IMG/VR virus record: IMGVR_UViG_3300032954_000003
Coordinates: 18,847-82,846 of that record
Origin: a virus
Lineage: Duplodnaviria; Heunggongvirae; Uroviricota; Caudoviricetes
Length of the DNA: 64,000 nt
Direction: 5' to 3' (one strand)
The notes under the pieces are model-generated. The model was given only the letters and a program-made list of their open reading frames with translations, was not told the DNA's origin and searched no databases. This document shows, piece after piece, positions 826 to 56,687 of the stretch; within the stretch, counting starts at the first letter, position 1; each line of letters begins with the position of its first letter. Position numbers and translations under genes: made by a program.

Positions 826-1224
826 ATGGACGTTGATCCTGCCCTAGACCGGCGCATCCTGAATCTACGGATCGCAGGCGGAGGCATTACCGGCCTTGCC
901 GATCAGTTCGGCCTCACCGATCAAGAGGTGCTAGACGCGTGCAAGCGAGCCCTAGATGCGATGGAAGCGCGCGAACCTATTGCTCAGGTCCGAGACCTTG
1001 AACTAGCGCGAATCGACCTCTGCCTTCGAGCGGTCATCCCGCTTGCTCTCCAAGGCAATCTCACGGCAGCGCGCACAGCTCGTGAATTCATGCAGGATCG
1101 CCGCGACATTTACGGGCTGGATAATCTACGGCCGAAACCTGAAAGTGAACATGATCGGCTGGATGCTCTCAATGAGCGACGGCGAACACGTCGCACACGC
1201 GGTATGCCACACGCTAAGAAATAA
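826..1224 (+). CDS. terminase small subunit candidate (HTH DNA-binding)
   Basis: GGAGGGA RBS precedes the ATG at 826. HTH-like segment ILNLRIAGGGITGLADQFGLTDQEV. The stop overlaps the terminase large subunit start (TAATG), a typical terS-terL arrangement. Confidence 0.45.
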   Translation: MDVDPALDRRILNLRIAGGGITGLADQFGLTDQEVLDACKRALDAMEAREPIAQVRDLELARIDLCLRAVIPLALQGNLTAARTAREFMQDRRDIYGLDNLRPKPESEHDRLDALNERRRTRRTRGMPHAKK

Positions 1225-36466: not shown

Positions 36467-36642
36467 CGACCAAGCATAAGCCAGCATCGCCTAAGCTTAC
36501 AATTGAAGTTACGCCGCCAATGCTTACTATGCTTGTCCGACTTGTTATGAATACTACAAGCCTTACAGCAGAGGAGCATCGGCTAGTGGCTGACTTTCAA
36601 GAAGAGGCAGTTGGCATCCTACAAGCGATGGCTGACCAATGA
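36465..36642 (+). CDS. hypothetical small protein (58 aa)
   Basis: ATG overlaps the upstream stop; GGAAAG RBS. Confidence 0.35.
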
Positions 36643-36947
36643 CTCTCATCCCGCATTTCGCTGCGCCCTTTGCCTTTAGTGCGAAGGGCGTAGTGAATGT
36701 TACCGAACAAGATAGTCAGCAGGAAATCTCAGACTGCATCTTCAATGTTGCTAGTTGCTTTGAAAACTTCCGCGAAGACTTGCCCGAATTTGGCATACCG
36801 GATCTAACATTCGAACAGATCCCACTGAATCTCGAAGCACTACAAGCGGCACTAAACCGCTGGGAACCGCGAGCGGAACTTACGCTTGAAGAAACAGAAG
36901 AACTTATGAATCCAGCAGCGCGTGCTGTATCGATCGAAGTGTTCTAG
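36639..36947 (+). CDS. baseplate wedge protein, GPW/gp25 family
   Basis: Segment FGIPDLTFEQIPLNLEALQAALNRWEPRAEL matches the GPW_gp25 signature (WEPR). Confidence 0.6.
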   Translation: MTLIPHFAAPFAFSAKGVVNVTEQDSQQEISDCIFNVASCFENFREDLPEFGIPDLTFEQIPLNLEALQAALNRWEPRAELTLEETEELMNPAARAVSIEVF

Positions 36948-38317
36948 AGAAGCTCTGCACGTTGGCGTATATCGAGTATGTGGTGCTGCCGTTCCAGCTT
37001 GCCGTCCTCAAAAAGCTTTAGCAGATAGTTGATGCCATCTGCTCCCTCCGCCAACGTTGCCAAAACACCCCTCCGGATAGTCAGCTTTAGCCGTCCGGCT
37101 TTGCTTGTCTTATCGGAACCTAGTGGTTCCTTATAGACAGGGTGCCACTCGCCTTCGCGCTTTTGTGCGCTGCACTTGAACGCAAACCTCTGGGTGTCGC
37201 GGTTGAGCTTTTGCAGTAGACCACCACCCATACCGAAAACCAAGTTCTCAGCAGCCCAACCAGCCTCTGCGGTAACGTCGAGGATCTGTTGGATATCGGC
37301 TGGTGTTAGACCATCGCCCCATAGGACGCGGACGTGGGGATCGAGTACGGTTCGCTTGCCGTTTGAGGTGCCACCAAACGCATCGCCTAGTGTCTGAAGA
37401 ATCCAGGTTACCAGCTCGCCTGGTGTTTTGTGTGCATCAGTGACTGAGTCAGGTCGTATAACAACAGGACCACCCTCGCGCTGCATGATCTCTTTCTTAC
37501 GCGCACAGATGTTGTATACGCAGTCATAGACGTTGTAGCTATCTACTACGATGGATAGCGGTCCTGAAGGGTACTGTTCGAGGATGTGACTAATCATGTC
37601 ATCCTCTCCCTCAGGGCCAAGCGCAGTCATTACTGAGTGCTCGGTCGCTGGTACGCTAGATCCAAGCTCTTCGTGGTAGCTGTCGCGCAACAGCTGGATA
37701 GCTGGCAACGTGTCTGTACCTAGGAAATTCACAAGGTGTGCCGCTCCACCTATAGCTGCTGCATCATGCGTTGTAGCGCCTCGATAGCCAAAGTCATGGA
37801 GCATAAAAGGCAAACCATTGAGCGAGCTTCCTGTATCCTCTAGTGCCTTTTTCAGCATTATCTTCACCTCTCGGCTAAGGGTTGCCACCGTGCATGGGTA
37901 CCACAAATGTGTTAGGTAGCTCTCGATGGCATTTGTTAGCCAGTAGCACTCGGGATCAGTGTTCTCGACCGTCATCAAGACATTGCCAGTCGGGATAGCC
38001 ATTCCCTCAGGGACAGCTCTTATGAGCAAAGGAAGTTTGCCATCATGCCAGTTGATGATGTGTTCCCACCCCTCAGTGTTAATCATGTCATCCGACCCGA
38101 AGTGCTTGCTTGCAAGCTGTTGCGCCTCTTGCAGGTGCTCGTCGGTTACTACCTCACCCGTGAGACCGCGTAGCAGGTGCTGTAAGCCGAAGAAAACGGT
38201 GTAGGGGTACCTTGCCCCTACTCGACTCTCGAAGTAGCTGTAAACGTGTTCAGTGCCCTCTGGATATTGTTTCCAGTGCGTGAGCTTGTATGAATCGGTT
38301 GCAAGTATGAGGTTCAT
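36944..38317 (-). CDS. nadV: nicotinamide phosphoribosyltransferase (NadV/NAMPT)
   Basis: Hallmark N-terminus MNLILATDSYKLTHWKQYP; 457 aa. Confidence 0.8.
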   Translation of the reverse strand: MNLILATDSYKLTHWKQYPEGTEHVYSYFESRVGARYPYTVFFGLQHLLRGLTGEVVTDEHLQEAQQLASKHFGSDDMINTEGWEHIINWHDGKLPLLIRAVPEGMAIPTGNVLMTVENTDPECYWLTNAIESYLTHLWYPCTVATLSREVKIMLKKALEDTGSSLNGLPFMLHDFGYRGATTHDAAAIGGAAHLVNFLGTDTLPAIQLLRDSYHEELGSSVPATEHSVMTALGPEGEDDMISHILEQYPSGPLSIVVDSYNVYDCVYNICARKKEIMQREGGPVVIRPDSVTDAHKTPGELVTWILQTLGDAFGGTSNGKRTVLDPHVRVLWGDGLTPADIQQILDVTAEAGWAAENLVFGMGGGLLQKLNRDTQRFAFKCSAQKREGEWHPVYKEPLGSDKTSKAGRLKLTIRRGVLATLAEGADGINYLLKLFEDGKLERQHHILDIRQRAELL

Positions 38318-39282
38318 CTCTTTACCTTTCGTATCTCTAAACCGCTGGTGTCGAGTTCAAGTTCTTCCACAACATGTAGTAATGCTCTGGACAATAGAGG
38401 TCGATGGTTTGGCATGACCTTGAGTTCAAGGTCTATGTCCAGTATGGATTCGTCTCCACGCCAGATATCGAACCAACCTACTTCCTCAATGTCGTCGTCT
38501 GGCCGAGGTGTACCGCTTTGGTGCTTAGCAGCGAACAGTAAAGTCTTGACCTTGTCTTGCTCGTTGCGATAGCGCCAGTCATCAACTTTGAAGGAACCGA
38601 GATACATTGGGTCCGTGATTTCTATGTGTGTCTCCTCATGCACCTCGCGCCGAGCATCCTGCTCAAATGTCTCTGAGGATGGATCAGCGAACCCACCGAT
38701 CAAGCGCCATAGCTTCTCGTCTGCCTTACGGCACAGAAGAATACGCTCGTAATCCTCACTGAAAACAGCTATATCTACTGTTGTAAACGAGGTAGGAAAG
38801 CGACTCTGCGAAGCCCACACAACACCAGCGCGCCAATCTGGCGAGTTCTTAGTTCGCCGGCGTCCCACCTCCTTTCGAAGCTGGCTGCCAGATACTCGGA
38901 TATAGTGCTCAGGCTCAAGTACCTCAGTAGGGTATGCCCCTCTGTAATGCTCTATGAATGAGTCCCGACCACCATATAGGATTGGACTCTGGGCAGGCGT
39001 GGTAACCTTGGCTATCTCAGCATCGAGCTTACGGCTCCAAAGCTGATCGTTGTTGACGTCCTGTATATAGAGAACATTGAGGTCTGGATAGGCAGCTAAA
39101 AGCATCTGCTTTCGCGCTTCAAAATCCAGCGGATTCTCAGCTGTTACTGGCAAAGGTGACAACCCAAGAAAGACAATCACCTTGTGGTGTTTGGCACAGA
39201 CGCTCTCAATCAAATGTCTGTGCATCCCATGCAAGTCGTGGACTTGAAAACGTCCCACGATGACGCCTACGTCGTGTTCCAT
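38314..39282 (-). CDS. nadM: bifunctional NMN adenylyltransferase / Nudix hydrolase (NadM-Nudix)
   Basis: Cytidylyltransferase motif GRFQVHDLHGMH (HxGH). C-terminal Nudix box GGFADPSSETFEQDARREVHEETHIEI. Confidence 0.75.
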   Translation of the reverse strand: MEHDVGVIVGRFQVHDLHGMHRHLIESVCAKHHKVIVFLGLSPLPVTAENPLDFEARKQMLLAAYPDLNVLYIQDVNNDQLWSRKLDAEIAKVTTPAQSPILYGGRDSFIEHYRGAYPTEVLEPEHYIRVSGSQLRKEVGRRRTKNSPDWRAGVVWASQSRFPTSFTTVDIAVFSEDYERILLCRKADEKLWRLIGGFADPSSETFEQDARREVHEETHIEITDPMYLGSFKVDDWRYRNEQDKVKTLLFAAKHQSGTPRPDDDIEEVGWFDIWRGDESILDIDLELKVMPNHRPLLSRALLHVVEELELDTSGLEIRKVKR

Positions 39283-39346
39283 AAGTTCCTCCGCGATTAT
39301 CAGTAAACAACGCTTTGGTACGGAAACGGTAGTATAGCGATTATCG

Positions 39347-39715
39347 ATGGGCTATAGCGATCCGCAACGGCAGCGCGAGTATCAGCGAGAGTGGGTGGCT
39401 AAACGTCGCGCGGAATATTTTGCTGACAAGTCGTGCGTTGTCTGCGGTAATACCAATGACCTTCAGCTTCACCACCTCGATCCAGCGCAAAAGATCAGTC
39501 ACAACATTTGGGGTTGGCGACGTGAGCGCATGGAAGCCGAGATAGCCAAGTGTGAGGTTCGCTGTTCCGCTTGTCATCGCAAACACCACTATGTATTATG
39601 GCGTAAGCACGGCATCGGCACTTATATGAAGAAGGGTTGTCGCTGCTTTATCTGTTATAGAGCAAAGGCAGCAGCGACACGACGTGAAACTCGATACGGA
39701 GGCGGCGCGAGTTGA
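39347..39715 (+). CDS. HNH endonuclease (small)
   Basis: CVVCGNTNDLQLHHLDP...CSACHRKHH pattern. Confidence 0.65.
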   Translation: MGYSDPQRQREYQREWVAKRRAEYFADKSCVVCGNTNDLQLHHLDPAQKISHNIWGWRRERMEAEIAKCEVRCSACHRKHHYVLWRKHGIGTYMKKGCRCFICYRAKAAATRRETRYGGGAS

Positions 39716-39794
39716 ACGCGCAGACCGCCGCTAAGGACGGCCACGAGGTTTAGCAAACCCGCTGGCGCACCACATGCCCAGCACCTCCAAGCTT

Positions 39795-40124
39795 TCAAAA
39801 CCCCACCTTCTTTTTCTTAGTAGAAGGCTTGGGTGGTGCTTGTAGTATACGACCTAAGGCGCTCTCAAACACCATGAAGTCTCTGTCTTCCTCACTGAGG
39901 AGCGGAGTGGGCTGATGACCACCCTTGCGCCTTGGGCGAAGTATTTCATTGAGTCTGTTAGGCGAGAGCCCCGCCTCCTTTGCAATCTCCTCAGGATCGA
40001 CACCAGCATCACGAGCCTCAATGCACCTTTCCGACAAGTCCTTGAGTGCTTCCATCTGCGCTCGCACAGCTTGAGCCCGTTTCCATGCTGCGCTACGGAC
40101 TGCCTCAAGAGTGTCCTTGGTCAT
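39795..40124 (-). CDS. HTH DNA-binding protein; ATG starts 1 nt after the tRNA-Asn 3' end
   Basis: HTH EIAKEAGLSPNRLNEIL. No space for an RBS between the tRNA and the ATG. Confidence 0.45.
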   Translation of the reverse strand: MTKDTLEAVRSAAWKRAQAVRAQMEALKDLSERCIEARDAGVDPEEIAKEAGLSPNRLNEILRPRRKGGHQPTPLLSEEDRDFMVFESALGRILQAPPKPSTKKKKVGF

Positions 40125-40125
40125 A

Positions 40126-40197
40126 CTGGCAACCTGGGATTCGAACCCAGAACCGTTCGGTTAACAGCCGAGCGCTCTGCCATTGAGCTAGTTGCCA
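40126..40197 (-). tRNA. tRNA-Asn (anticodon GTT)
   Basis: Acceptor TGGCAAC pairs with GTTGCCA, anticodon loop CTGTTAA, discriminator G. Confidence 0.7.
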
Positions 40198-40324
40198 TTT
40201 TGTTCTAATTTTTGGTCGGTTCACCGCGCCGACGCTTCAGGATAGCGCCTAGCAGTGATTCCGAATGATCCCATTTACCAAACAGATACTTCCAAATCAT
40301 TGACCACTCCTTTGTAGTGTCTAG

Positions 40325-40396
40325 AACGGGTGGCGAGGATCGAACTCGCTCTTAGAGCTTGGAAAGCTCTCGTGCTGCCAAGTACACCTCACCCGC
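40325..40396 (-). tRNA. tRNA-Gly (anticodon TCC), atypical A8 and G1.U72
   Basis: Cloverleaf with anticodon loop TTTCCAA and T-loop TTCGATC. Position 8 is A and 1-72 is a G.U pair. Confidence 0.5.
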
Positions 40397-40538
40397 GAAG
40401 AAATTGCCGTCGCCTAGAGCTGCCGCTTCAGCTCTAATTGACGGACTTGCCCTATTGGTTTATAGAAGGGCTATACATGCCTATTTCGGCCTCACGCGAG
40501 CGGTGCGGCATATTAGCTGTAGCTGCTTTTCGCGTTAG

Positions 40539-40628
40539 CGGAAAGCGGAGGAGTCGAACCCCTGCCTCGTCTTAGGAGACAACTGGTTTTCAAGACCAGC
40601 GCCGAGACCGACCTCGGCCGCACTTTCC
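40539..40628 (-). tRNA. tRNA-Ser (anticodon TGA), type II
   Basis: Anticodon stem-loop CTGGT-CTTGAAA-ACCAG, long variable arm GTCTCCTAAGAC, discriminator G; 90 nt. Confidence 0.65.
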
Positions 40629-40770
40629 ATATGTGCGGATTACCCCAACCCTTCGGCTTTCCGCAAGCTCGGTCACCTACCGAGTTCCCTCAGATAAGAG
40701 ATGAAATGTCACTCCCCGCATAACGCAACACTTCATTCCGCGCGGGTTAGCGGACCCTACCCTTATCCTA

Positions 40771-40843
40771 AGTGCACGGTGGGATTTGAACCCACGGCCT
40801 TCACGTTGGCAACGTGACGCTCTACCAGCTGAGCTACGCACAC
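40771..40843 (-). tRNA. tRNA-Gly (anticodon GCC)
   Basis: Acceptor GTGTGCG pairs with CGTGCAC, anticodon loop TTGCCAA, discriminator U. Confidence 0.65.
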
Positions 40844-41140
40844 ATAAGCGTTGCCTACACGACAAGCCTCTCAGGTACATCCGGTTTGCTTGTCCCGTTT
40901 TGTCCTTCAGGAACTAACCCATCCGTAAGCGCCTATCTGTACTTAGCGCAACCTCGGCAACGCAATAACGACTATAGCGTATCTAGCCGGCTCGTGCAAG
41001 CAGCGTGGATGCTGACAACTTAGTAGCTGGTGCTTCTTTGGACTTAGACATAGACATCAACGATACAGTAGACCGTCCTTCTTGGGGTGGACTGAATTCA
41101 GCAAAGTCATAAGCAAGCTCGGGCTTTGCTAAGTCCTTGC

Positions 41141-41353
41141 CTAGAAAGGGCGCACCACAACCTGGCAGCGGTCTAGCTTTGCTTGATCGGCAACAATCTC
41201 GTCCGGAATCGCACGAGCTGCGATCATTTGCGCCTTACCCTCATCGCGTGCCAAGATGCGTGTTACATCGACGACAAGCTTGGCCTCTTCAGTGACTTCA
41301 CCATCCTTGTCTGTTTTCTCGTCAAGAATAACGGCGTACTCGAAAATCTCCAT
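41141..41353 (-). CDS. hypothetical small acidic protein (70 aa)
   Basis: GAAAGGAAC RBS precedes the ATG. Confidence 0.5.
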   Translation of the reverse strand: MEIFEYAVILDEKTDKDGEVTEEAKLVVDVTRILARDEGKAQMIAARAIPDEIVADQAKLDRCQVVVRPF

Positions 41354-41574
41354 CGTGTTCCTTTCTTGCAGACAAATCCCCTAGCCCGCCCTCACGGCTC
41401 TCTATTGAAGTGATGCTGGTAATAACGATTCACCGTTACGATGCTCAATTGAGCTGTACACCTGCCGTACGATGAGGTGTTTCAACAGGTTTCTAGGTGT
41501 CGTAGATTGGGCCGACCAAGGCCAAGGAAAAGGTGCATCCGTCCTTCGCTAGATAACCGCTACCGACTGTCTGC

Positions 41575-42033
41575 TTAGATTAGGTCTGTAGCCCAGTTGA
41601 CTACCTGGATTTCATTGTCCAACTTCCGCAACTTTGCAGAAGTCTTATCAGCTTTTTCATGCAGTGCCTTTACATCCACATGCCGTGTGAGCTTTAGCTC
41701 AGACCGCATATAGCGGAAAGCACTAGTGTCACCTTGAGCAGCATCAGCCGCTTGCTTATAGGTGGCGATCAAGCCAGCCAAACGGTCACGTTCGGCGAGC
41801 GCATCTGTGAGTGTCCCCTTCTTGAACTTCGTAGAAGCGTTTGTATGGTTGATACGACCGATTAGGACCGCTAGGGCCTCATGAACCGTCTCTGCTTCTG
41901 AGATGAGCGTAGACGCGTTCTCAGGAGGTGTTGTATCCTCTTGTGCCGCTGCACTCATACTGATGCGGCTACGTAGTTCGCTAATGCGCTTTTGTAAGCG
42001 TGCGCGCTCTGAAAGCGCCTCTCCTAGTTTCAT
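41575..42033 (-). CDS. hypothetical helical protein
   Basis: The ATG (MKLGEALSERARLQKRISELRS) has an AAGGTGAG RBS; the track start at 42102 is an extension. Confidence 0.5.
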   Translation of the reverse strand: MKLGEALSERARLQKRISELRSRISMSAAAQEDTTPPENASTLISEAETVHEALAVLIGRINHTNASTKFKKGTLTDALAERDRLAGLIATYKQAADAAQGDTSAFRYMRSELKLTRHVDVKALHEKADKTSAKLRKLDNEIQVVNWATDLI

Positions 42034-42063
42034 TCTCTCACCTTGGTTTACTTGGTTACCGGA

Positions 42064-42135
42064 TTGCCGACCGAGGATTCGAACCTCAACCTCAGGGGCC
42101 AAAACCCTGCGTCACTGCCTTTAGACTAGTCGGCA
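42064..42135 (-). tRNA. tRNA-Gln (anticodon TTG)
   Basis: U1-A72 acceptor TGCCGAC pairs with GTCGGCA, anticodon loop TTTTGGC. Confidence 0.6.
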
Positions 42136-42208
42136 CTGGCGACCGAGGGCTCGAACCTCGAATACTGCGTCCAGAGCGCAGCGTCTTTCCTATTTAGACT
42201 AGTCGCCA
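42136..42208 (-). tRNA. tRNA-Gln (anticodon CTG)
   Basis: U1-A72 acceptor TGGCGAC pairs with GTCGCCA, anticodon loop CTCTGGA, discriminator G. Confidence 0.65.
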
Positions 42209-42282
42209 TACCCGCCGAGGGATTCGAACCCCCACTTTCCTGTTCTTGAAACAGTTGCCTCTACCGATTGGGCTACACGGGC
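42209..42282 (-). tRNA. atypical type-I tRNA with anticodon CAA (Leu UUG codon) but short variable arm; isotype undetermined
   Basis: 74 nt: GCCCGTG-TA-GCCC...AGGC-A-ACTGT-TTCAAGA-ACAGG-AAAGT-GGGGG-TTCGAAT-CCCTC-GGCGGGT-A. A73, G37, 5-nt variable loop. Confidence 0.5.
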
Positions 42283-42289
42283 TTGTACA

Positions 42290-42364
42290 TACCGCTGGTA
42301 GGATTCGAACCTACACTGACCGGAGCTTAAATCCGGTGCCTCTGCCAGGTTGGGCTACAGCGGC
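42290..42364 (-). tRNA. atypical type-I tRNA with anticodon TAA (Leu UUA codon) but short variable arm; isotype undetermined
   Basis: 75 nt: GCCGCTG-TA-GCCC...AGGC-A-CCGGA-TTTAAGC-TCCGG-TCAGT-GTAGG-TTCGAAT-CCTAC-CAGCGGT-A. Its 5' end overlaps the stop of CDS 42355..43041. Confidence 0.5.
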
Positions 42365-43041
42365 TCAATTACTACTGGTGGGTTGATGGGTCTGTAAATC
42401 GCATCCATGTGCGCAACATTATAGATGTTAGTCTCTCGTCCTTCGTACCTCAGTGTATATTGACCGTATCCCTCGTGAATATGACCACAGACAACGGTAC
42501 GTACACGTTGGGTTGCAACATTCTCTCGAAGCTCCTTTGAGCCACAATACTCGTAGCCTGTAATTCGATTGCCTACTAGATCTCCTCTGCCAGCTAATGG
42601 GCCGTGCGACAGTAGGATGTCTGTGTTCCGTGGGATGTTAGCGAAAGCTAGTCTAGCCTCGTCACCTTCCTTCTGAAACGCCCACCCAGGCAAATTAGGT
42701 GTCCAAGGTGTTCCATAGATGGTGAGGCCGTCTACCTCAGTGCCTGAATCCTCAAGGTAAGTTAGCTTTGGGATCTCCTCGACAGCTGCTTTACCTTCTT
42801 CGGTCTCAAGCCAGAAGTCATGGTTCCCAGCAACGAGGATCACACGCTCTGTAGGTAATGCGGCAATCCACTCAGCAAACGTTTCCTTCGCCCACTGCGT
42901 TTGGTCTGCCGGATGATGGCTACCATTGACTGGTGGTAAGTCTCCACCGATAAGAAGCAAGTCACAAGGCTCAATCTCAGGTAGCGCACCATGGAGATCG
43001 GATGTAGCAATGATGTGCATTACTCTCTTGGCTTCCACCAA
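42355..43041 (-). CDS. calcineurin-like metallophosphoesterase
   Basis: Motifs DLHG, GGDL, AGNHD and GHIHE. The start is either 43041 or the ATG at 43018 (MHII...). Confidence 0.65.
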   Translation of the reverse strand: MVEAKRVMHIIATSDLHGALPEIEPCDLLLIGGDLPPVNGSHHPADQTQWAKETFAEWIAALPTERVILVAGNHDFWLETEEGKAAVEEIPKLTYLEDSGTEVDGLTIYGTPWTPNLPGWAFQKEGDEARLAFANIPRNTDILLSHGPLAGRGDLVGNRITGYEYCGSKELRENVATQRVRTVVCGHIHEGYGQYTLRYEGRETNIYNVAHMDAIYRPINPPVVIEPL

Positions 43042-43235
43042 TCGGAAAACTCTGAGGAGCTGAGTCGATGCATTGCATGAGACGTCACAAACCCCTGCAA
43101 TACATGGACCGCTTGAGTTAGCTCACTACGATTGTACTGTAGTGGTCCGCGCTCGTCCATCTCAATGATTGCTTTAGCAGCATCCTCAATGGCTAGCATT
43201 GCGCGCAACTCATTCTCGTCAAGGATACTTTTCAT
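43020..43235 (-). CDS. hypothetical small protein (71 aa)
   Basis: ORF overlapping the start of the phosphoesterase gene; no clear RBS. Confidence 0.35.
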   Translation of the reverse strand: MKSILDENELRAMLAIEDAAKAIIEMDERGPLQYNRSELTQAVHVLQGFVTSHAMHRLSSSEFSDWWKPRE

Positions 43236-43369
43236 GCTGGTCTGTTGTGGAAGGTTTCTGGATCAGGGTCGAAGCCTAGGCATGGGCACTCGGTTTCGTT
43301 CTCGTCATCCAGCACATCGATGCAAGGTCCTGGCATTACACCGCCACCCTGTGTGGAGTAGTGCATCAT
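43236..43369 (-). CDS. hypothetical small Cys-containing peptide (44 aa)
   Basis: Its stop TGA overlaps the ATG of 43020..43235 (ATGA coupling). Confidence 0.25.
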
Positions 43370-43417
43370 GACCACACTTACAGGTGCTATAGATTGTGGC
43401 TTCTAACTTGTTCATAG

Positions 43418-43504
43418 TACCGCCCGAGGGACTCGAACCCTCAATGCCTATCACGGCAAACTGGTTCCTAAGACCAGCGTGTTTACCAATTTCACCAGAG
43501 CGGC
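43418..43504 (-). tRNA. tRNA-Leu (anticodon TAG), canonical type II
   Basis: 87 nt. Anticodon stem-loop CTGGT-CTTAGGA-ACCAG, long variable arm TGCC-GTGATA-GGCA, A73. Confidence 0.65.
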
Positions 43505-43524
43505 CTGTGTCTAGCTGGCTAGAA

Positions 43525-43605
43525 GTGCCGAGGGAGGAATCGAACCTACCTTGTCGGAGACCACCGGGTTACAGCCGGCTACCTGGCCATCAGGCGTCCT
43601 CGGCA
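43525..43605 (-). tRNA. tRNA-Tyr (anticodon GTA), type II
   Basis: 81 nt. U1-A72 acceptor, anticodon loop CTGTAAC at canonical positions 32-38, variable arm GTC-TCC-GAC. Confidence 0.55.
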
Positions 43606-43610
43606 TTGAG

Positions 43611-43684
43611 CGGGTGGGCCGAGAATCGAACTCGGGATTACTGGTTTTGGAGACCAGTCGCGGACACCAACGCCGCACTCACCC
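43611..43684 (-). tRNA. tRNA-Trp (anticodon CCA)
   Basis: Anticodon stem-loop CTGGT-CTCCAAA-ACCAG, T-arm CCGAG-TTCGATT-CTCGG. One A.C mismatch in the acceptor. Confidence 0.5.
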
Positions 43685-43726
43685 CTAAGAGTAAGTGTTG
43701 GAGTCGCTGGTATCGCCATCGGAAAG

Positions 43727-43798
43727 TCCGGGTGGATGGAATCGAACCATCTCTGCCTGCTCCCAAAGCAGGTGTGCGAGCCACTACACCACACCCAG
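43727..43798 (-). tRNA. tRNA-Pro (anticodon TGG)
   Basis: C1-G72 and A73 (Pro-like). Anticodon loop TTTGGGA, T-arm GATGG-TTCGATT-CCATC. Confidence 0.65.
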
Positions 43799-44116: not shown

Positions 44117-45583
44117 ATGGCTGAATTCATAAACGTAAACGTCGAAACTGAACCGATCCAGCTTGCCGATAATGCGCTAGATAGGTTGGCGGAAGAACTC
44201 GAAGCCAAGGGAATCATTGGATGGGAACCTAATGAAGCCAACCTAGAAGTCATCCTCATCAATATCTTGGCGATGATGGCTAATAACGCTGCGCTAGTCG
44301 CAGCAGTTGTACCAGAAGCTGTCTTCCGCCAATATGGCACTCAGCTTTTCAAACTCCTGTTCAACGAAGGTGCCTACGCCAGCGCTAGCACCAAATGGAA
44401 ACTCCTAGAAGAAGGCGGCAAATACCCAGCACGGGAAATTGAAGCTGGGTTAACTATCGAAGGCTCAGGCAAGGCGTTCTATGTAGAAAAAGCGGTTGAA
44501 GTCAAAGAAGGTGAACATGAAGCGACGGTACAGGTCATCGCTGCCGAACGCGGTGAAGAATATAACGGCATCACAGGAGTGCTATCGCCTGTAAACAACA
44601 TCAACTTCGTATCGGAAATCACGATTACCGCCGAAACAACAGGCGGCGCAGATCAGGAAAACGATACCGAATACATGAAACGTCTAGCTACACAGCTAGA
44701 ACTACAAGCACCACGTCCCATTACAGCAGCCAATTTTGCAACGTTTGCTTTGGATGCTCCTAGCACTGTGCTACCTACTGGTGTTGTTATCGGTAGAGCG
44801 ACAGCGATAGACGGCTATAACCCAGAAGTCCATACCTTCGAAGCCAAAGTAGTCAGCACTGAAACGACAATGGCTGAAGTGACTAGCTTTACCGGCATCA
44901 CCGCTGAAGCAAGCTCGCCGCAGAAACACCCTGGCACGCGTCTCAAAGGTCCTGGTATCGCTGAAGGTACAACCGTGGTCTCAGTCAACGAAGGTGCCAA
45001 AACCTTGGTGATGAGTAAAGCGGCGATCTCAAGTCCTGGGAAAAAAGAAAAATACGAAGCGATCGGCTCCTACGAAAACCAGCGTACTGTAACCGTATTC
45101 GTGACAACTAGACAAGGTAAAGAAGTGTCTAAAGCTGGCCGTGAAGCGGTACAGAAATATCTTGAATCGTATCGTGAGATCAACTTCAAAGTCTTCGTTG
45201 AACCACCCAACTACAACGAAGTGCGCGTGACTGCCGTTGTACATGTTCTCTCAGGGTTCAATGAAGCGACCACTCTGTCTAACGTCAAAACTGCCATCGA
45301 AAATCTCCTCTCGCCTGAAACATGGGGTAACCCGACCAACCGCAATGAAGATGAAAGTTCGGGGTGGATCAACGCCACTGAAGGCTTCAACGTTGTGCGT
45401 TACAACCAGATCATTGGAGCGATCGAGGCGGTACAGGGAGTTGCCTACGTGCTAGCAGGCAGCTCTGGACTTGCTATAGGACTGGAAGAAGCACCTGGCA
45501 GTAAAACGGCCGATCTAACGCTGTTTGGACCAGCGCCACTGCCGGAAACCAAACCAAGCAATATCAAAGTAACAGCGGGCTAA
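44117..45583 (+). CDS. baseplate J-like protein
   Basis: 488 aa. Position and composition fit P2 gpJ / T4 gp6-like proteins. Downstream of the W/gp25 gene after the insertion. Confidence 0.55.
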   Translation: MAEFINVNVETEPIQLADNALDRLAEELEAKGIIGWEPNEANLEVILINILAMMANNAALVAAVVPEAVFRQYGTQLFKLLFNEGAYASASTKWKLLEEGGKYPAREIEAGLTIEGSGKAFYVEKAVEVKEGEHEATVQVIAAERGEEYNGITGVLSPVNNINFVSEITITAETTGGADQENDTEYMKRLATQLELQAPRPITAANFATFALDAPSTVLPTGVVIGRATAIDGYNPEVHTFEAKVVSTETTMAEVTSFTGITAEASSPQKHPGTRLKGPGIAEGTTVVSVNEGAKTLVMSKAAISSPGKKEKYEAIGSYENQRTVTVFVTTRQGKEVSKAGREAVQKYLESYREINFKVFVEPPNYNEVRVTAVVHVLSGFNEATTLSNVKTAIENLLSPETWGNPTNRNEDESSGWINATEGFNVVRYNQIIGAIEAVQGVAYVLAGSSGLAIGLEEAPGSKTADLTLFGPAPLPETKPSNIKVTAG

Positions 45584-47957: not shown

Positions 47958-48273
47958 GTGTGCCCAAAGGGTGACCTAAGGGGTTACGGCTATATGGAAT
48001 GCTTGAACGGCTTAGAATCGCCAAGCCGCATACGCAAGGCTACATACAAGGAACGTCACAGCAAACGCTACAAAGCTGCCGGTTATGACCCATGCCGTTA
48101 CACTAGCTACAGCAATGAAATAACGGACAGGACGCGTTCTAGCAGCTACACGACGTTTTGCGTTTCGCCGCGCCCACCGATACTCCTTGCGTGTTGCGTA
48201 ATTCTCTCGGTTTAGTTGAGTGCTCATGCAACGTAGGATAGCAGTGGACCGACGCTAGTGCAAACGCCGCTGG

Positions 48274-48789
48274 TCACTCATCAGTCTCTCCGTGGTCTCT
48301 GGGGGTGTGGGCTGCTGAGAGCCAGTTCTCGAACGCTGGTCGTAGCTCGGCGGGTAGCTCGCTCTCGCGGCCCTCGTATGGCCATTCGCCGTTGTAGCCC
48401 TCACCGCTGTGCGCGAAGCCAGCCACGTAGGCCGCCAGCAGCTCCTCATCTGTCGGCTCACCGGACCGGACGGGCTCGGCCAACTTGTCGAAGGCGTCGG
48501 CTATGGCCGCCTCGAACCGATAGGTGCTGCTGATTGGGCCCCAGCCTGTCAGCTCCGCAATGAGCTCGTCGTGCGTGTGCATCCGGTCCCAGAACCAGCA
48601 CATCCGGGCGTGTGGCGTGCCAGCACCGATCGGGCCGGTCTCCTCGTGGTCTGTGACACCAGGGATACCGCCCTCCACATCGCCGGGCCAATAGGTCGGG
48701 CTGCCCCGGACGGGCTCGTAGGAGCAGGTCCTCTCGTCGCTGGTGTGGACCTTTACGTGAGAGCCGCAGGTGGGGCAGGTGTCAGCCAT
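48274..48789 (-). CDS. hypothetical protein with N-terminal Zn-ribbon (GC-rich island)
   Basis: GGAGGAG RBS precedes the ATG (MADTCPTCGSH...). About 68% GC. Start overlaps the upstream stop. Confidence 0.55.
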   Translation of the reverse strand: MADTCPTCGSHVKVHTSDERTCSYEPVRGSPTYWPGDVEGGIPGVTDHEETGPIGAGTPHARMCWFWDRMHTHDELIAELTGWGPISSTYRFEAAIADAFDKLAEPVRSGEPTDEELLAAYVAGFAHSGEGYNGEWPYEGRESELPAELRPAFENWLSAAHTPRDHGETDE

Positions 48790-49288
48790 TCGACTCCTCC
48801 GAGGTAGGGGTGGTTGGGTTCTGGGCTGCGAGTGCTGCGCGGGCCACGGTTCCGGCGGGGGAATTGGCACAGTCCTCGTTGGTAGCGATGAACCCCAGGG
48901 CCGCTTTGTAGCGCCCTCCGACCAGCGACTCGCGGTCCCGCTGTTCCCGATAACTCTGCTCGCGTGCAAGTGCCCCGTCCCGCTCCTCCCTCAGAGCCCT
49001 TGCGTCCTCTTCTGCCGCCTCTGCTCGCCGGTTTTTCTTTTCCGCCAGCTCGCGCAACGACTCCCGCGCTCGGCGGTGCATGGCGATCTCCTCTTCTGCA
49101 TGGGAAAGGGCGGACTCGGCTTGCTCGGCTCCGACTTCCTCGATGTAGTCGCAGGCATCGACCCATCCGGCGTTGTAGGCCACGCGCTCAATGACGCTCT
49201 GAGGGTGATGGCGCTCGCAGTGCTCCTGCATAGCGCTCGGATGGCGAGTCTCAGCCACGGGGTCTCCTGGGGATGGATGGTCAGGCAT
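48782..49288 (-). CDS. hypothetical coiled-coil protein (GC-rich island)
   Basis: GGGAG RBS plus ATG (MPDHPSPGD...); coupled to its neighbours. Confidence 0.5.
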   Translation of the reverse strand: MPDHPSPGDPVAETRHPSAMQEHCERHHPQSVIERVAYNAGWVDACDYIEEVGAEQAESALSHAEEEIAMHRRARESLRELAEKKNRRAEAAEEDARALREERDGALAREQSYREQRDRESLVGGRYKAALGFIATNEDCANSPAGTVARAALAAQNPTTPTSEESNG

Positions 49289-49604
49289 CGACCGGCTCCC
49301 GTGCGATTGAATCCCAGAAGCGCTTGGAGCCATCTACCTTGCACTCAAGGCCGCAGATCGTGCATTTGCCGTGGTAGTTCCACTCGACCTTGCCGCCCTC
49401 GGTCCACCACTCGTAATCCTCGCGGAAGGTCCGGTACTTGTTGTCTTCGGCGTCCGGGAGGTCCGGCAAGTCGGCGCGGCGCTGCTCAAACTCCTCGACG
49501 GGGATCTGGCCGTAAAGCGCGTCAACTTCGCGCTTTGCCTCTTCGGCGGTTTCCTTGGCCTGCTGCAAGCATCGCGGGCAGGCTGCCCAGTTATCGGCAC
49601 TCAT
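49281..49604 (-). CDS. hypothetical Zn-ribbon protein (GC-rich island)
   Basis: GAGAGGAGCGAG RBS. CPRC...CTICGLEC motifs. Confidence 0.55.
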   Translation of the reverse strand: MSADNWAACPRCLQQAKETAEEAKREVDALYGQIPVEEFEQRRADLPDLPDAEDNKYRTFREDYEWWTEGGKVEWNYHGKCTICGLECKVDGSKRFWDSIAREPVDA

Positions 49605-50459: not shown

Positions 50460-50498
50460 AGCCTCAGGGTGGCAACCTCAGATCAGGGGTGGGCTCAG

Positions 50499-50831: not shown

Positions 50832-51791
50832 TTAGTGGGTCACCGCAAATCCTGCGCCTGGCGCAAAGGTTGTAACGTTTGGCGGAATTGCCTTTAGCTC
50901 ATCGATTTGAGCGCATGCAGGGCAGTGTTCGTAACCATGTTGACGTTCCTCATTTGCTTGTGCTTCCAGCTTGGCTTGTGCAACCTTGGCTCGTGCTGAA
51001 CCAACGGCTGCGAACTGCGCTTGTGCCTTATCGATTTCATTCTGGATAGCTTCTGGCAGTGTTACGTGTTCAAGCAGGAAGCTAATGTTCGAGAAGTAGT
51101 CATTACCGAGCGCCGATGCAATGTCGGTCTTGAGGTTAGCGTTGACTGCTTCTTGAACCTTTTGCAAGTTACCGTTGTTTTGTCCACCGCTGGACACGCT
51201 TGAACTGTTGTGGATTAGCGCACAAGATGACACAAGCTGTGGACACGTAACCGTACCGATGCTGCGTCGCAGATCATTGTTGATGATCGGTCGCACAACT
51301 TGGCTTAGCAGCGCACGCCAACCTTCTTCGCCTTCATAGGGCTTTAGCGCTTCGGCACCTTCATTGCTGGATTGAAATGTACGGATACCAAAGCGACTAT
51401 CGAAATCCTTGAGCAGTCTTACACCTGTTACTGAGCAGTTGAATGCCGTCGTGAAGTAGAAGGTACCTTCAAGTCCAACGCGAACACCATCTTGCGTTGG
51501 CACCTCAACGACATCTGCCCCCTTGCGGTCACCTTGACCAGATTCCGATGTAATGGTGTAGTTACGCTGTACGCTGTCCGCTGGGTACCAGTGGACTTCC
51601 GAGCCAAAACCTGGCCATGACCAGCCGGTCCCAGGACAAATAACCTTACTGATCCCATGACCATTGAACCACGTCCATGGTGCAATAAAGGAATGGCCTG
51701 TCCGTACTACTCCAATCTGCCCAGCACCCGGTGTAGCACCGCACGCTGCTAGCGCCAATCCAAGTGCTGCAACAGCGAAAAGTCGCTTCAA
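50832..51791 (-). CDS. SPFH/band-7-like lipoprotein
   Basis: Lipoprotein signal MKRLFAVAALGLALAACGA (lipobox LAAC). Central and C-terminal regions with Ala/Gln-rich coiled coil resemble an SPFH domain. Confidence 0.5.
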   Translation of the reverse strand: MKRLFAVAALGLALAACGATPGAGQIGVVRTGHSFIAPWTWFNGHGISKVICPGTGWSWPGFGSEVHWYPADSVQRNYTITSESGQGDRKGADVVEVPTQDGVRVGLEGTFYFTTAFNCSVTGVRLLKDFDSRFGIRTFQSSNEGAEALKPYEGEEGWRALLSQVVRPIINNDLRRSIGTVTCPQLVSSCALIHNSSSVSSGGQNNGNLQKVQEAVNANLKTDIASALGNDYFSNISFLLEHVTLPEAIQNEIDKAQAQFAAVGSARAKVAQAKLEAQANEERQHGYEHCPACAQIDELKAIPPNVTTFAPGAGFAVTH

Positions 51792-52201
51792 GTGATGCCT
51801 CCTGTTACATTGATGTCCACTGATCTGATGTCCTCATCGTTGATGAGATATGAACGAACCACCGGCTTTTGCCATGGTCCAACGCCAACTATCAGCCACT
51901 CAACATCTGGCCAGTTCTCCGCAAACTGGACGTCAACCATTGAAGGAAACGCAGGGATACAAATGTGCGAGTGATAGATGGCACCAAGCTTGAAACCTTG
52001 AGACTCGAACTCTGTGATCTGCTCGATAAGTTCGAGCGGATCAATAATGAACTCGACCTCCGGTTTGTCTGAGATGTTGATAGAGCGATGCATGCTTGTC
52101 GCTTCGTTATCCTTGGTGGCAATAAGTCCACAACACTCAAACGGCGCATCCTCCCACGCATGGGTGAGGATGTCGGCTAGGATGTTGGCGTTGATGTCCA
52201 T
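51788..52201 (-). CDS. JAB/MPN (JAMM) metallopeptidase
   Basis: JAMM motif elements PFECCG...YHSHICIPAFPSMVD (E ... HxH ... S..D). Confidence 0.65.
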   Translation of the reverse strand: MDINANILADILTHAWEDAPFECCGLIATKDNEATSMHRSINISDKPEVEFIIDPLELIEQITEFESQGFKLGAIYHSHICIPAFPSMVDVQFAENWPDVEWLIVGVGPWQKPVVRSYLINDEDIRSVDINVTGGIT

Positions 52202-52675: not shown

Positions 52676-54277
52676 CTATTCCAGCGGCTTTGCCGACAAA
52701 GGCGTTACCACTACTGTTGTCGAGTTACCTTCGCCACTCAGCAACATTGTGAACACTTCCCCGAGCAATCCTCCAAGTCCTAGCAAGCCGCTGTGGCAAG
52801 AGAACTTACCGATAGCGGATGTGCCATTGAGATGGACTTCGCTTTCGAGACTTGTAAGAGATTGATGTCCAGTGAGATAAAGCTTTGCCTTGCTTTCGCA
52901 GCTCGTGGGGATCTTCAGGCCGAGCATCGACAGGTACTCAATGCCGATTTGCTCGGTGCCGGTGGTGCGGAGCTTTGCTTCGGTGGCGCTTTCCCATTCG
53001 GTGTTTCCGGTGATGGCGCCGCCGATGTTTAGGCCGAGGCTTGCGACGGTGAGACCCTCCCATTCGAGTGGGGCTCTGAAAGTTCCCGTGCTGAATGAGG
53101 TGTTCAGATTCCCGTACAGTGCTGACAGACCCGACGCTTCCCCCACTGGGAAATTGAACGACTGACCCAACTTCTTGTCCTTCAGGCTGCTGCCCGCTAG
53201 AGACCACTTCGTTAGATGTAAGACTTTTGGGGCCGGTGCGCCGCCTCCGCCGACGTAGTTGTCGAGGAGGCCCTGGCCGATGACGGTGACGGGTTCTGGG
53301 AGGTCCTTGACTTCGTAGGGAGCGCAGCAGGGTTCATAGCCGCCTTCGCTCACGCCGATGCCGAGCATCCCGCGCAGGTTGCCGTCCCAGGTGTAGGCCT
53401 TGCTGTTCTGGAGTGCGATGAAGCTCTCTGTGCCGGAGGCGGCCTGCACGGCTCCCGTGATCGGTGCGGCGTGCATCTTGCCGTTGGGTTCGAGCATGTA
53501 GAGCGAGCCGTTTTCCGTCTGGGCGAGGCCGTCTGTCCACCCAGGCCAGAGGTTGACGACGCCGTTGGCGCGTTCGGTGAGTGCGTCCTCCGAGCATCCC
53601 ATCACCTTGCCCTTGGCGGTGAGGACGTACACGTCCTCCAGGGCGGGCTCGACCTGCTTCGCTTCGCTGACGCCTTCCATGACCACGGGGGAGTCGCCCC
53701 CGCCGCGTGAGGCGAGGCAGAACTGGTCGTATGTGTTCGTGCCCCAGTTGACGACCTGGCCGCCCGAGGTGACCGCGGCGGCCGATGCGGGGCCGGCGCC
53801 GATCGAGGTGGCGACCAGTCCGGGCACGACTTCCGGTAGATGGTGCGTGTCGAACTGCGGCTCATAGAGCGTGCCGTTGATCGTGGCGCCCCAGGTGACC
53901 ACGCTGCCGTTGGAGAGCAGCGCCATCGCGAAGTGCTCACCGGCCGCGATGTTGACGACGTGTTCGAGCGGCAATGCGACCGGGGTGTCCGAGCTTGCCG
54001 GTGAGGCGACGCCGAGCTGGTCGTATTCGTTCGAGCCACAGGTGTAGACCTTGCCTTCGCTGCCGAGGAAGACGACGAACTGTTCGCCGCCGGCTATCGC
54101 CGTTGGCTTGATCGACGACGCCGCGGCTGGGATGCTGCTGTACGCCTGTTCTGCGAACGGGATGCCGTCGCAGAGTGCTCCGTCTTCGTTGCCTCCGATG
54201 GAGCCGAGACCCGCCATTGCCGAGGGCGCTAAGACGAGCGCTGCCAGCGTGGCGACGAGGATTGACCCGAGTTTCAT
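52676..54277 (-). CDS. secreted RCC1-repeat beta-propeller protein (GC-rich, host-like)
   Basis: Signal peptide MKLGSILVATLAALVLAPSAMA. Repeats YTCGSNEYDQLG and WGTNTYDQ. About 68% GC. Confidence 0.6.
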   Translation of the reverse strand: MKLGSILVATLAALVLAPSAMAGLGSIGGNEDGALCDGIPFAEQAYSSIPAAASSIKPTAIAGGEQFVVFLGSEGKVYTCGSNEYDQLGVASPASSDTPVALPLEHVVNIAAGEHFAMALLSNGSVVTWGATINGTLYEPQFDTHHLPEVVPGLVATSIGAGPASAAAVTSGGQVVNWGTNTYDQFCLASRGGGDSPVVMEGVSEAKQVEPALEDVYVLTAKGKVMGCSEDALTERANGVVNLWPGWTDGLAQTENGSLYMLEPNGKMHAAPITGAVQAASGTESFIALQNSKAYTWDGNLRGMLGIGVSEGGYEPCCAPYEVKDLPEPVTVIGQGLLDNYVGGGGAPAPKVLHLTKWSLAGSSLKDKKLGQSFNFPVGEASGLSALYGNLNTSFSTGTFRAPLEWEGLTVASLGLNIGGAITGNTEWESATEAKLRTTGTEQIGIEYLSMLGLKIPTSCESKAKLYLTGHQSLTSLESEVHLNGTSAIGKFSCHSGLLGLGGLLGEVFTMLLSGEGNSTTVVVTPLSAKPLE

Positions 54278-55475: not shown

Positions 55476-55513
55476 CCGCTATTTGCGCGACTGCTTGCCT
55501 AGCCGGCTAGAGA
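55476..55513 (+). promoter_or_regulatory. conserved TTGCGN - CTAGCCGGCTAGAGA element upstream of the S12-like gene (one of seven copies)
   Basis: Copies at 5071-5101, 11688-11721, 24245-24261, 29047-29082, 43510-43525, 55476-55513 and a variant at 60444-60458. 12-bp palindrome CTAGCYRGCTAG. Confidence 0.5.
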
Positions 55514-55530
55514 TTGCTACCCTTTACCGC

Positions 55531-55923
55531 ATGCCAACGACTAATCAACTTGTTAGAAAAGGTCGCAAGCGCCCGTCAAAGACAAGCAAAAGCGCGGCGC
55601 TGCGAGGGAATCCGCAGCTACGTGGTACAGTTACGCGTGCGTACGTTATTAAGCCACGTAAGCCAAACTCAGCACTTAGGAAGGTAGTGCGCGTACGTTT
55701 GTCTAATGGCGAAGAGTTGACGGCAAGCATACCCGGAGAGGGACATAACTTGGCTGAGCACCATTCAGTGCTAGTAATTGGTGGAAATCGTCCCGATCTC
55801 GGTGGTGTTAGCTACAAAGTTATTCGTGGTGCGCTCGATCTATCTGCGCCATTTTCAGTCAATCAAAAGCCCGGAGACAAACGCAAGCAGTCACGTTCAA
55901 AGTATGGAACCAAGCGCACTTGA
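55531..55923 (+). CDS. rpsL: ribosomal protein uS12 (RpsL) homolog, divergent
   Basis: [13 protein letters not shown]...[16 protein letters not shown]...IPGEGHNL...[13 protein letters not shown]...[10 protein letters not shown] aligns along its full length to bacterial S12 and most closely resembles actinobacterial RpsL. The conserved KPNSALRK is intact. The loops around K42 and K87/P90 are altered. Confidence 0.8.
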
Positions 55924-56197
55924 ACTCAGACTTAGACGGGAGCGTGTCTCTCGTGCACGTTTGCGCGCAGCCGATACCGCTGAGCCACTTATGGTTCGCG
56001 TGACTGCTCTTGTCGCTGCCATCGCTTGCGATCCTGACGAACCGCTTGGTCCTGCTCCAAACTACACAGCACTACTTGGCAGTATCGCTGGACAAATCGG
56101 CTGTACACCAGCAGAGGTCCAACTTGCACTGACGGCAGCGCAAGAAAGTGGCTTGCAGAACCGCTTCGTGAAGGATTACCTGAGTGAGCGTACATAG
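55904..56197 (+). CDS. hypothetical protein (97 aa), overlaps the 3' end of the S12-like gene
   Basis: ATG in an alternate frame 20 nt before the S12 stop; no RBS. Confidence 0.3.
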
Positions 56198-56687
56198 GGG
56201 TGCGCGCGTTGTCCCTCAGTGCGGTTTGTGTTTTGGACGATATGACATCGTCTACGCGTCACTGAGCTTTGGTTATCTCTGCGAGGGTTGCAGAGATAAG
56301 GTGCATGGAGCAGCGCCGGCGAAGAACTATGAGTTCCAAGTAGAGCGTTCTAAGCGGCGCAAGTTGCGTAAGGTCCGTATTGGACCGCACCGCAATGAAT
56401 CCACTACACGGCTGCTTGTACGTATCGCCGAAAGAGATGGTTGGACTTGCCATCTCTGTGATCTGCCTGCCGACCTACAAGCACCAATGGGTCCAGACTT
56501 CGTTACGTTTGACCATCTCCGGCCTCGGGTGAAGCAAGGACAGCGCACGTATGAGAATGGTCGTATAGCACACCGCTTCTGTAATACCTTGCGCGGTGTT
56601 AGCTCTGTAGAGCAAGCGCGTGAGCGATACCAAGAACGGATGGTAACTCGGATACAGAAAGCTCTGAAGGAGAGAGGCGGTAGCTAG
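56184..56687 (+). CDS. HNH endonuclease
   Basis: WTCHLCDLP...DFVTFDHLRPRVKQG...ENGRIAHRFCNTLRG is the HNH motif. The GTG start is uncertain. Confidence 0.65.
   Translation: MSVHRGARVVPQCGLCFGRYDIVYASLSFGYLCEGCRDKVHGAAPAKNYEFQVERSKRRKLRKVRIGPHRNESTTRLLVRIAERDGWTCHLCDLPADLQAPMGPDFVTFDHLRPRVKQGQRTYENGRIAHRFCNTLRGVSSVEQARERYQERMVTRIQKALKERGGS

Follow-up and report, generated by a model that had tools for sequence, protein, structure and literature searches.

A predicted NARP2-type NAD+ salvage cassette in an uncultured tRNA-rich phage

Introduction

Two adjacent genes on a viral contig (IMG/VR record IMGVR_UViG_3300032954_000003) raise the question of whether a phage brings its own complete route from nicotinamide to nicotinamide adenine dinucleotide (NAD+) into the host cell, and, if so, which role such a route would serve during infection. 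The DNA analysed here, called the window, is a stretch of 64,000 nucleotides (positions 18,847 to 82,846 of that record), and all positions below are those of the window unless the contig is named. A first-pass annotation of the window had described the pair as a NAMPT-type nicotinamide phosphoribosyltransferase (NadV) translationally coupled to a bifunctional nicotinamide mononucleotide (NMN) adenylyltransferase-Nudix protein (NadM-Nudix), and as a likely counter-defence module of a kind described earlier in phages. A two-enzyme phage route from nicotinamide to NAD+ has indeed been published under the name NARP2 (for NAD+ reconstitution pathway 2), and was shown with genes of phage KVP40, whose Nampt and Nmnat restore NAD+ and cancel the defence systems type I Thoeris, DSR1/2, SIR2-HerA and aRES, and produce excess NAD+ even without a defence system (Osterman et al. 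2024). Our analysis suggests, with a probability of roughly 0.8, that the present pair encodes the enzymes of two-step NAD+ salvage, carried by the phage as a NARP2-type cassette. This reading is based on sequence comparison and on a structural model of the second enzyme.

Results

Arrangement of the two genes

The two minus-strand open reading frames (ORFs), both taken from a six-frame ORF list with ATG starts, occupy exactly the span 36944-39282 singled out in the first-pass annotation. The upstream, nadM/natV-like gene (38314..39282) encodes a 322-aa NMN adenylyltransferase-Nudix protein, and the downstream nadV gene (36944..38317) a Nampt-clade nicotinamide phosphoribosyltransferase of 457 aa. 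The three peptide motifs quoted for the pair were all located in the two proteins, ILATDSYKLTHW at residues 4-15 of NadV and GRFQVHDLHGMH and REVHEETHIE at residues 10-21 and 212-221, respectively, of the 322-aa protein. The nadM-like stop and the nadV start overlap in an ATGA at 38314..38317 on the minus strand, immediately preceded by the purine-rich stretch GAAAGGTAAAGAG, which bears out the proposed translational coupling. A GGAGGA Shine-Dalgarno sequence (ribosome-binding site; 39287..39292, minus strand) lies 4 nt before the nadM-like ATG, and at the other end of the pair the stop of nadV has a CTAG in common with that of a baseplate-like plus-strand ORF (36639..36947) running towards it.

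NadV

Hidden Markov model (HMM) searches matched the 457-aa protein to Pfam NAMPT_N (PF18127; 5e-36, 123 bits, cut-off 25), Pfam NAPRTase (PF04095; 1.7e-32, 113.5 bits, cut-off 20.8), NCBIfam PRK09198/NF006629 (486.8 bits against an equivalog cut-off of 405) and phrog_448, nicotinamide phosphoribosyl transferase (1.3e-138), and phmmer aligned it over its full length with NAMPT structures in the PDB, human NAMPT included, at 1e-119. The active-site motifs are DSYK (residues 8-11), HDFGYRG (174-180), GTDT (200-203), ATEHS (224-228), IRPDS (287-291), GDG (334-336), GGG (364-366) and R373. Residues Y10, F177, R180, D202, H227, R288, D290, G334-D-G336, G364-G-G366 and R373 match the active site of human NAMPT, which we take to be numbered Y18, F193, R196, D219, H247, R311, D313, GDG, GGG and R392. 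The HMMs, the PDB matches and the complete set of catalytic motifs thus confirm NadV as a NAMPT-type nicotinamide phosphoribosyltransferase.

The Namat of another phage pathway, NARP1, does not differ from Nampt in Pfam domains or annotation (Osterman et al. 2024), and NadV was therefore compared directly with KVP40 and Felix O1 references, the Felix O1 homologues being used as NARP1 references (Namat and Adps). In pairwise comparison NadV scored 309 bits with KVP40 NadV (42% identity) and 140 bits with the Adps-associated Felix O1 Namat (31.5% identity). With Felix O1 Adps as the query, tblastn gave no Adps/Prs homologue in the 64-kb window (best E 0.72), and no Adps was seen in contig positions 16,654-98,746 of 108.8 kb. 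Since NadV is far closer to KVP40 NadV than to Felix O1 Namat, and no Adps match was seen, it is placed by these pairwise scores as a Nampt-clade enzyme.

The NMNAT-Nudix protein

The C-terminal part of the 322-aa protein is a Nudix hydrolase domain (residues ~160-300; 38383..38805, minus strand), matched by Pfam NUDIX at 3.3e-14 (53.5 bits, cut-off 21.1) over residues 168-273. The N-terminal part (residues ~1-145; 38848..39282, minus strand) is, by its motifs and by phmmer, an NMN adenylyltransferase (NMNAT) domain of the archaeal NadM nucleotidyltransferase type, with the motifs G10-R11-F12-Q13, H18-x-x-H21, N50-P51, W82 and S131-x4-R136.

Several features weigh against reading this protein as an NMNAT joined to an ADP-ribose (ADPR) pyrophosphatase of the known NadM-Nudix type. 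The match to Pfam CTP_transf_like (cytidylyltransferase/NMNAT) reaches 18.1 bits, under the cut-off of 21, so that of the domain matches anticipated in the first-pass annotation those to NAPRTase and NUDIX were obtained over cut-off and that to CTP_transf_like was not. NCBIfam equivalogs for NadM-Nudix proteins give at most 59.3 bits against a cut-off of 397 (PRK05379; the cut-offs of these models are about 400). The NMNAT signatures are present in altered form, as GRFQ-VHDL-H18-G-M-H21 and S131-G-S-Q-L-R136 instead of GRFQPxHxGH and SxTxxR, with a 2-residue insertion in the former and another residue in place of the Gly of HxGH (the window protein reads HGMH and the family consensus HxAH). 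The FDxPxRSxRGR motif canonical for NadM-Nudix ADPR pyrophosphatases is absent, and DDWRYRxExDK stands instead.

With the NMNAT domain under the Pfam cut-off, profile and fold evidence was needed. In phmmer searches of the PDB the protein matched the NadM-Nudix structures 2qjt (4e-11) and 2qjo (1e-9) and also the Methanocaldococcus jannaschii NMNAT 1f9a. An AlphaFold2 model built with 41 homologues had a mean predicted local distance difference test (pLDDT) value of 84.5, and the top six Foldseek matches of this model in the PDB were NadM-Nudix structures (2qjt, 2r5w and 2qjo), aligned along the whole length over ~350 columns with E values of 1.5e-16 to 2.2e-14. The overall TM-score against these structures is only ~0.4, as the two domains are oriented differently relative to each other. 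Foldseek matches to the Nudix domain only included NrtR with ADPR, NudC and an Ap4A hydrolase. Alignment of the family profile with KVP40 NatV by hhalign gave a probability of 97.4% (E 1.5e-11) over 275 columns covering both domains, and BLASTP against the same protein gave two short, marginal segments of ~28 bits.

The family of the 322-aa protein is large, with 1,659 members at E <= 1e-5 and a highest identity of 63%, and several of these carry the Joint Genome Institute (JGI) name 'bifunctional NMN adenylyltransferase/nudix hydrolase'. Relatives were found by tblastn in only 14/50,697 phage records, the closest in Tunturiibacter phage Tunturi_5 (42%) and four uncultured huge phages.

The residues expected for catalysis are retained. 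The NMNAT motif residues are invariant or nearly so in 41 family members and are common to KVP40 NatV and phage MD18 NadM; those invariant in the family and in both of these proteins include G10-R11-F12, H18, H21, N50-P51, W82 and R136. The Nudix box was found as G197-x6-E204-x7-R212-E213-V-H-E216-E217-T-H-I, which, compared with GX5EX7REUXEEXGU, has one extra loop residue and H for the last G, with the catalytic Glu present. In the same cross-family alignment, of 8 sequences, all six Nudix residues G196-G197, R212-E213 and E216-E217 are invariant across subfamilies; within the 41-member family there is no variation at G196, G197, E213 and E217, and conservation of R212 and E216 is at least 90%. 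On alignment, then, catalytic residues are conserved in both proteins of the pair. The interdomain linker is ~35 residues shorter than in canonical NadM-Nudix proteins. The score under the curated NadM-Nudix cut-offs puts the protein in a separate subfamily of the same architecture, and from the alignments and the model we conclude that the 322-aa protein is a predicted active NMNAT-Nudix fusion of a distinct, compact and divergent subfamily. Its earlier description as a bifunctional NMN adenylyltransferase-Nudix protein is borne out by the fold, the hhalign match with KVP40 NatV and the catalytic residues.

The Nudix box is followed by the family-specific D234-D-W-R-Y-R-x-E-x-D-K244, in which D235-W-R-Y...E241-x-D243 is family-invariant. 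As this segment replaces FDxPxRSxRGR, the sequence does not allow a substrate to be assigned to the Nudix domain. There is a small chance that DDWRYRxExDK marks a new substrate preference, e.g. for an ADPR-derived immune signal or ADPR-1''-phosphate. The suggestion in the first-pass annotation that the Nudix domain could hydrolyse ADPR-derived signals is backed neither by the sequence nor by the literature searched, in which no report linking phage Nudix enzymes to cleavage of gcADPR (glycocyclic ADP-ribose) was found.

Linkage and origin of the gene pair

For comparison, the best 80 IMG/VR loci and the best 80 GTDB genome loci encoding relatives of the 322-aa protein were sampled. A NAPRTase (NadV-family) gene lies on the same strand and less than 2 kb from nadM in 72/80 of the IMG/VR loci, downstream in 71, and 3 of the 8 loci with no adjacent NadV are truncated contigs. 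The order nadM, nadV is also found in Tunturi_5 and in the huge phage LR756502. Among the GTDB loci, which are mostly from Bacteroidota, Chlorobiota/Kapaibacteria, Acidobacteriota and Verrucomicrobiota and include isolates of Arcicella, Marivirga, Chitinophaga, Filimonas and Mucilaginibacter, a NadV-family gene is present within 1.5 kb in 67/80, in some loci with a prs-like gene directly after nadV. The pairwise distances of the NadM-like and NadV proteins correlate over 135 loci (Mantel r 0.63; 0/999 permutations reach r). As a separate observation, the neighbouring NAPRTase is only ~26% identical to the window NadV in six of the 72 IMG/VR loci (L038, L060, L073-L075 and L081), and may there be a different NAPRTase-family enzyme, e.g. 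PncB-like or Namat-like.

A neighbour-joining tree of the concatenated proteins (no bootstrap; best 80 loci per collection) places the window cassette in a 43-leaf clade of which 42 leaves are viral. With the copies from isolate genomes the window proteins share only 39-48% identity. Almost no flanking genes are common to the window and the 160 related loci, L007 alone sharing distant baseplate genes, and wider synteny was therefore unusable. Because flanks are almost never shared, the cassette has the appearance of a nadM-nadV operon of cellular origin that phages acquired and thereafter retained in one piece. Such an origin agrees with the report of the AntiDefenseFinder authors that homologues of NARP1 and NARP2 mostly lie outside prophages, on bacterial chromosomes.

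Genome setting

The window belongs to a metagenome contig of 108,815 bp deposited at ENA (ERZ27256576, k141_4285166). The contig carries genes for terminase, portal, prohead protease, capsid, tail sheath and baseplate, and with structural genes on the same contig the element is therefore a tailed phage, its source being an uncultured, tRNA-rich, myovirus-like phage. No related phage genome was found in 50,697 phage records, the DNA matches being 70-90-bp patches inside nadV only. The cassette closes a ~7-kb minus-strand island (36.9-44.1 kb) that splits plus-strand tail/baseplate genes, which extend up to 36947 on one side and continue with Baseplate_J at 44117..45583 on the other. Upstream of the cassette and in the same orientation lies a block (39696..43798, minus strand) with 13 tRNA genes, a helix-turn-helix-like ORF, a DUF6847 protein (41575..42102; Pfam 9e-44) and a calcineurin-like metallophosphoesterase (42355..43041; Pfam 2e-12). 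The published NARP1-associated phosphatase is a Macro-domain enzyme, so that the metallophosphoesterase of the island has no evident link with it.

ARAGORN predicts 21 tRNA genes in the window, 17 of which are confirmed by Rfam, and these form three co-oriented clusters (8641-10254, 39696-40843 and 42064-43798, all on the minus strand). A co-oriented tRNA gene lies at most 414 bp upstream of nadM in every member of the window's own clade, and in four of these members, the closely related loci L004, L005, L006 and L010, the cassette stands inside arrays of 25-40 tRNAs, with a transfer-messenger RNA (tmRNA) as well in L005 and L006. The order tRNA-Ser(gct), nadM is common to the window and L004. 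As there is no baseline for tRNA density in such phages, the tRNA-cassette arrangement is treated as conserved synteny within the clade.

An HNH endonuclease gene (39347..39715, plus strand; phrog_4234, 4.1e-32) lies between tRNA-Ser(gct) and the cassette and overlaps by 20 nt the tRNA-Ser, which is called by ARAGORN alone. In L004 only 219 bp separate tRNA-Ser(gct) from nadM, and the HNH gene therefore looks like a recent homing-endonuclease insertion; it is probably a later arrival at this site. Further HNH genes were seen at 56184..56687 and near 12.0-12.8 kb.

The nadM-like gene and the HNH gene diverge from a 64-bp intergenic region (39283..39346). It contains two minus-strand copies of GATAATCGC, at 39293-39301 and 39337-39345, 44 bp apart; a third copy is at 12094-12102, which makes 3 in the window against 0.32 expected, and the element could be a phage promoter or operator. 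Scanning of 36.4-40.3 kb gave 3 sigma-70 promoter sites against 2.8 expected and 5 terminators against 3.5 expected. Both are at chance level, with the scored sites inside coding sequence and no sigma-70-like site in the 64-bp region, and no transcription signals are therefore claimed. No riboswitch or regulatory RNA was found upstream of the cassette, Rfam at gathering thresholds finding only tRNAs in the window.

Other genes on the contig

A full-length homologue of ribosomal protein S12 (uS12) is encoded at 55483..55923 on the plus strand, with the likely true start at the ATG at 55531. It matches Pfam PF00164 at 3e-27 over profile positions 2-103 of 110, and is only ~50-57% identical to bacterial S12 proteins. 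The 18 matches to S12 in the phage collection, which include bacterial whole-genome shotgun records and short unannotated fragments, look like host contamination, and a 2019 survey of virus-encoded ribosomal proteins makes no mention of S12. The S12 of the window could be a rare virus-encoded core protein of the decoding centre.

The terminase and portal genes both appear to contain inteins. The large terminase (1224..3731, plus strand; 835 aa) has split PHROG matches together with LAGLIDADG/Hom_end Pfam matches, and the portal gene (~6.1-8.5 kb, plus strand) has Intein_splicing, Hint and LAGLIDADG matches. The region 48000-54300 has a GC content of 0.59-0.64, against ~0.51 elsewhere in the window, and encodes RCC1/WD40-repeat (52676..54277), Prok-JAB (51788..52201) and Band_7/SPFH (50832..51791) proteins. 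On the parts of the contig outside the window (L173 and L174) an ATP-dependent DNA ligase lies next to a Ku homologue, and a Ro60/TROVE-vWA protein, a ParB_N protein and a second Band_7 protein are also encoded there.

Discussion

Proposed function

In the proposed pathway NadV would condense nicotinamide and phosphoribosyl pyrophosphate (PRPP) to NMN, a step for which the homology is strong, and, as with NAMPT, ATP-dependent autophosphorylation at the conserved His227 would probably stimulate the enzyme. The next step, the conversion of NMN and ATP to NAD+, is predicted from fold and motifs for the N-terminal domain of the 322-aa protein. As the most tentative step, the C-terminal Nudix domain might hydrolyse ADPR, and possibly NAD(H), to AMP and ribose-5-phosphate; it would in this way clear the other product of NADases, and the ribose-5-phosphate could feed the host Prs to give PRPP. 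The net effect would be an NAD+ pool that is kept or raised during infection, which, by analogy with the KVP40 genes, would blunt Thoeris, SIR2-HerA, DSR and aRES. The ancestor of the cassette would be the cellular nadM-nadV operon, which may then have been maintained and passed on as a unit in a largely viral clade.

That counter-defence is the main selected role of this chemistry is, by analogy with NARP2, an even bet in our judgement. A point that weighs against it is that many Bacteroidota, Chlorobiota and Acidobacteriota carry the nadM-nadV operon on the chromosome, presumably for housekeeping; given this, and given that NARP1/2 homologues are mostly outside prophages, a defence-specific role is not readable from sequence. 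The same enzymes may have been selected for general metabolic support, as a pair of auxiliary metabolic genes that raise NAD+ for the rapid replication of a large phage, which we hold to be a serious possibility of lower probability. Such a role would fit a cassette that looks like a captured housekeeping operon, the excess NAD+ given by NARP2 even where no defence system is present, and the sharing of the island with other resource genes, the tRNAs; the original 2017 KVP40 study, too, reportedly read nadV and natV as nucleotide-precursor metabolism. On the other side, inspection of 82 kb revealed no phage-encoded NAD+ consumer, the DNA ligase being of the ATP-dependent kind (PF01068), and experiments show that NARP2 cancels several NADase defences. 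The metabolic and the counter-defence role are inseparable by sequence and are mutually compatible. The tRNA arrays and the cassette, with tmRNA in L005 and L006, might even form a conserved 'replenishment island' against abortive-infection effectors, which would replace tRNAs lost to anticodon nucleases as well as NAD+ lost to NADases, an idea that we regard as rather unlikely.

The remaining alternatives concern what the genes are rather than what they are for. The 322-aa protein might not be an NMNAT at all, its degenerate N-terminal domain being regulatory or transferring another nucleotide, with the Nudix domain, acting for example on NAD(H), NAD caps or ADPR-derived immune signals, as the main activity and host enzymes finishing NMN. 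The scores under the Pfam and NCBIfam cut-offs, the altered HxGH, the distinct Nudix specificity segment and the presence of NudC and Ap4A hydrolases among the Nudix-only fold matches would agree with this. We nevertheless consider it improbable, as both His residues, the Arg of GRFQ, the NP, W82 and the Arg of SxxxxR are invariant or nearly so in more than 40 members and align with KVP40 NatV, the best full-length fold match is NadM-Nudix, the strict pairing and co-variation with NadV are those expected of an enzyme of the consecutive step, and the literature search gave no paper on gcADPR cleavage by a phage Nudix enzyme. Still lower is the probability that NadV is a NARP1-type Namat joining nicotinamide to ADPR-pyrophosphate: the identical Pfam domains and annotation of Namat and Nampt would allow it, but KVP40 Nampt and human NAMPT are much more similar to NadV than is Felix O1 Namat, searches of the window and of 82 kb of the contig gave no Adps, and an Nmnat partner in the same operon is the NARP2 signature. 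As little weight can be given to the suggestion that the pair is bacterial DNA brought in by mis-assembly or a host fragment. Close family members do occur in bacterial chromosomes; against this, baseplate/tail genes and phage-type tRNA/HNH blocks flank the pair on both sides on the same contig, the GC content of the cassette is uniform with that of its neighbours, and the nearest relatives of both proteins are on viral contigs, which supply 42/43 of the clade leaves.

A phage-borne NARP2-type cassette as favoured here would add an environmental, tRNA-rich phage lineage to the carriers of such pairs, and would be a clear example of a cellular housekeeping operon captured and kept whole in phages. 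Surveys seeded on KVP40 NatV may undercount NARP2, since tblastn matched the present subfamily in only 14/50,697 phage records and BLASTP with the KVP40 protein hardly detects it. The understanding of the pathway itself is unchanged, and the value of the finding lies mainly in annotation and in the picking of divergent enzymes.

Comparison with known systems

Among phage pathways that end in NAD+, NARP3 (a NadR-like RNK-NMNAT with PnuC) has the end product and the NMNAT step in common with the pair, but begins with imported nicotinamide riboside, and was rejected as an assignment as there are no NadR or PnuC Pfam matches in the cassette neighbourhood. NARP1 (Adps and Namat; Bas63, SPbetaL1) is likewise a two-gene phage system for NAD+ reconstitution whose second enzyme is of the NAMPT family. 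It differs in requiring the PRPS-like Adps and in using ADPR pyrophosphate (ADPR-PP), and an assignment to it was rejected because NadV is nearer to Nampt and no Adps was found in the contig positions searched.

The bacterial non-deamidating salvage operon NadV-NadM(-Nudix), represented by 2qjo of Synechocystis and 2qjt/2r5w of Francisella, resembles the pair in fold and domain order and in the gene order nadM, nadV (67/80 related loci, sometimes followed by prs). In contrast to that operon, the window proteins belong to a clade that is 42/43 viral and are 39-48% identical to the isolate copies, no prs or NrtR-type regulator adjoins the cassette, and the scores lie under the NadM-Nudix cut-offs.

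KVP40 NARP2 has the same two enzyme families with the same predicted chemistry, is phage-encoded and, as in the contig positions searched here, is without Adps; NadV is 42% identical, and NatV has the same two-domain architecture and shared catalytic residues. The nadV and natV genes are, however, 43 kb apart in KVP40, whereas they overlap by 4 nt here in an operon as in bacteria. The 322-aa protein differs from KVP40 NatV (28 bits by BLASTP) in its 2-aa HxGH insertion, its linker shorter by ~35 aa and the segment after the Nudix box. The pair has the testable features of NARP2, namely a Nampt-clade NadV, a NatV homologue and phage origin. By its sequence it belongs to the known NARP2/NadV-NadM salvage kind, with a second enzyme that is unusually divergent.

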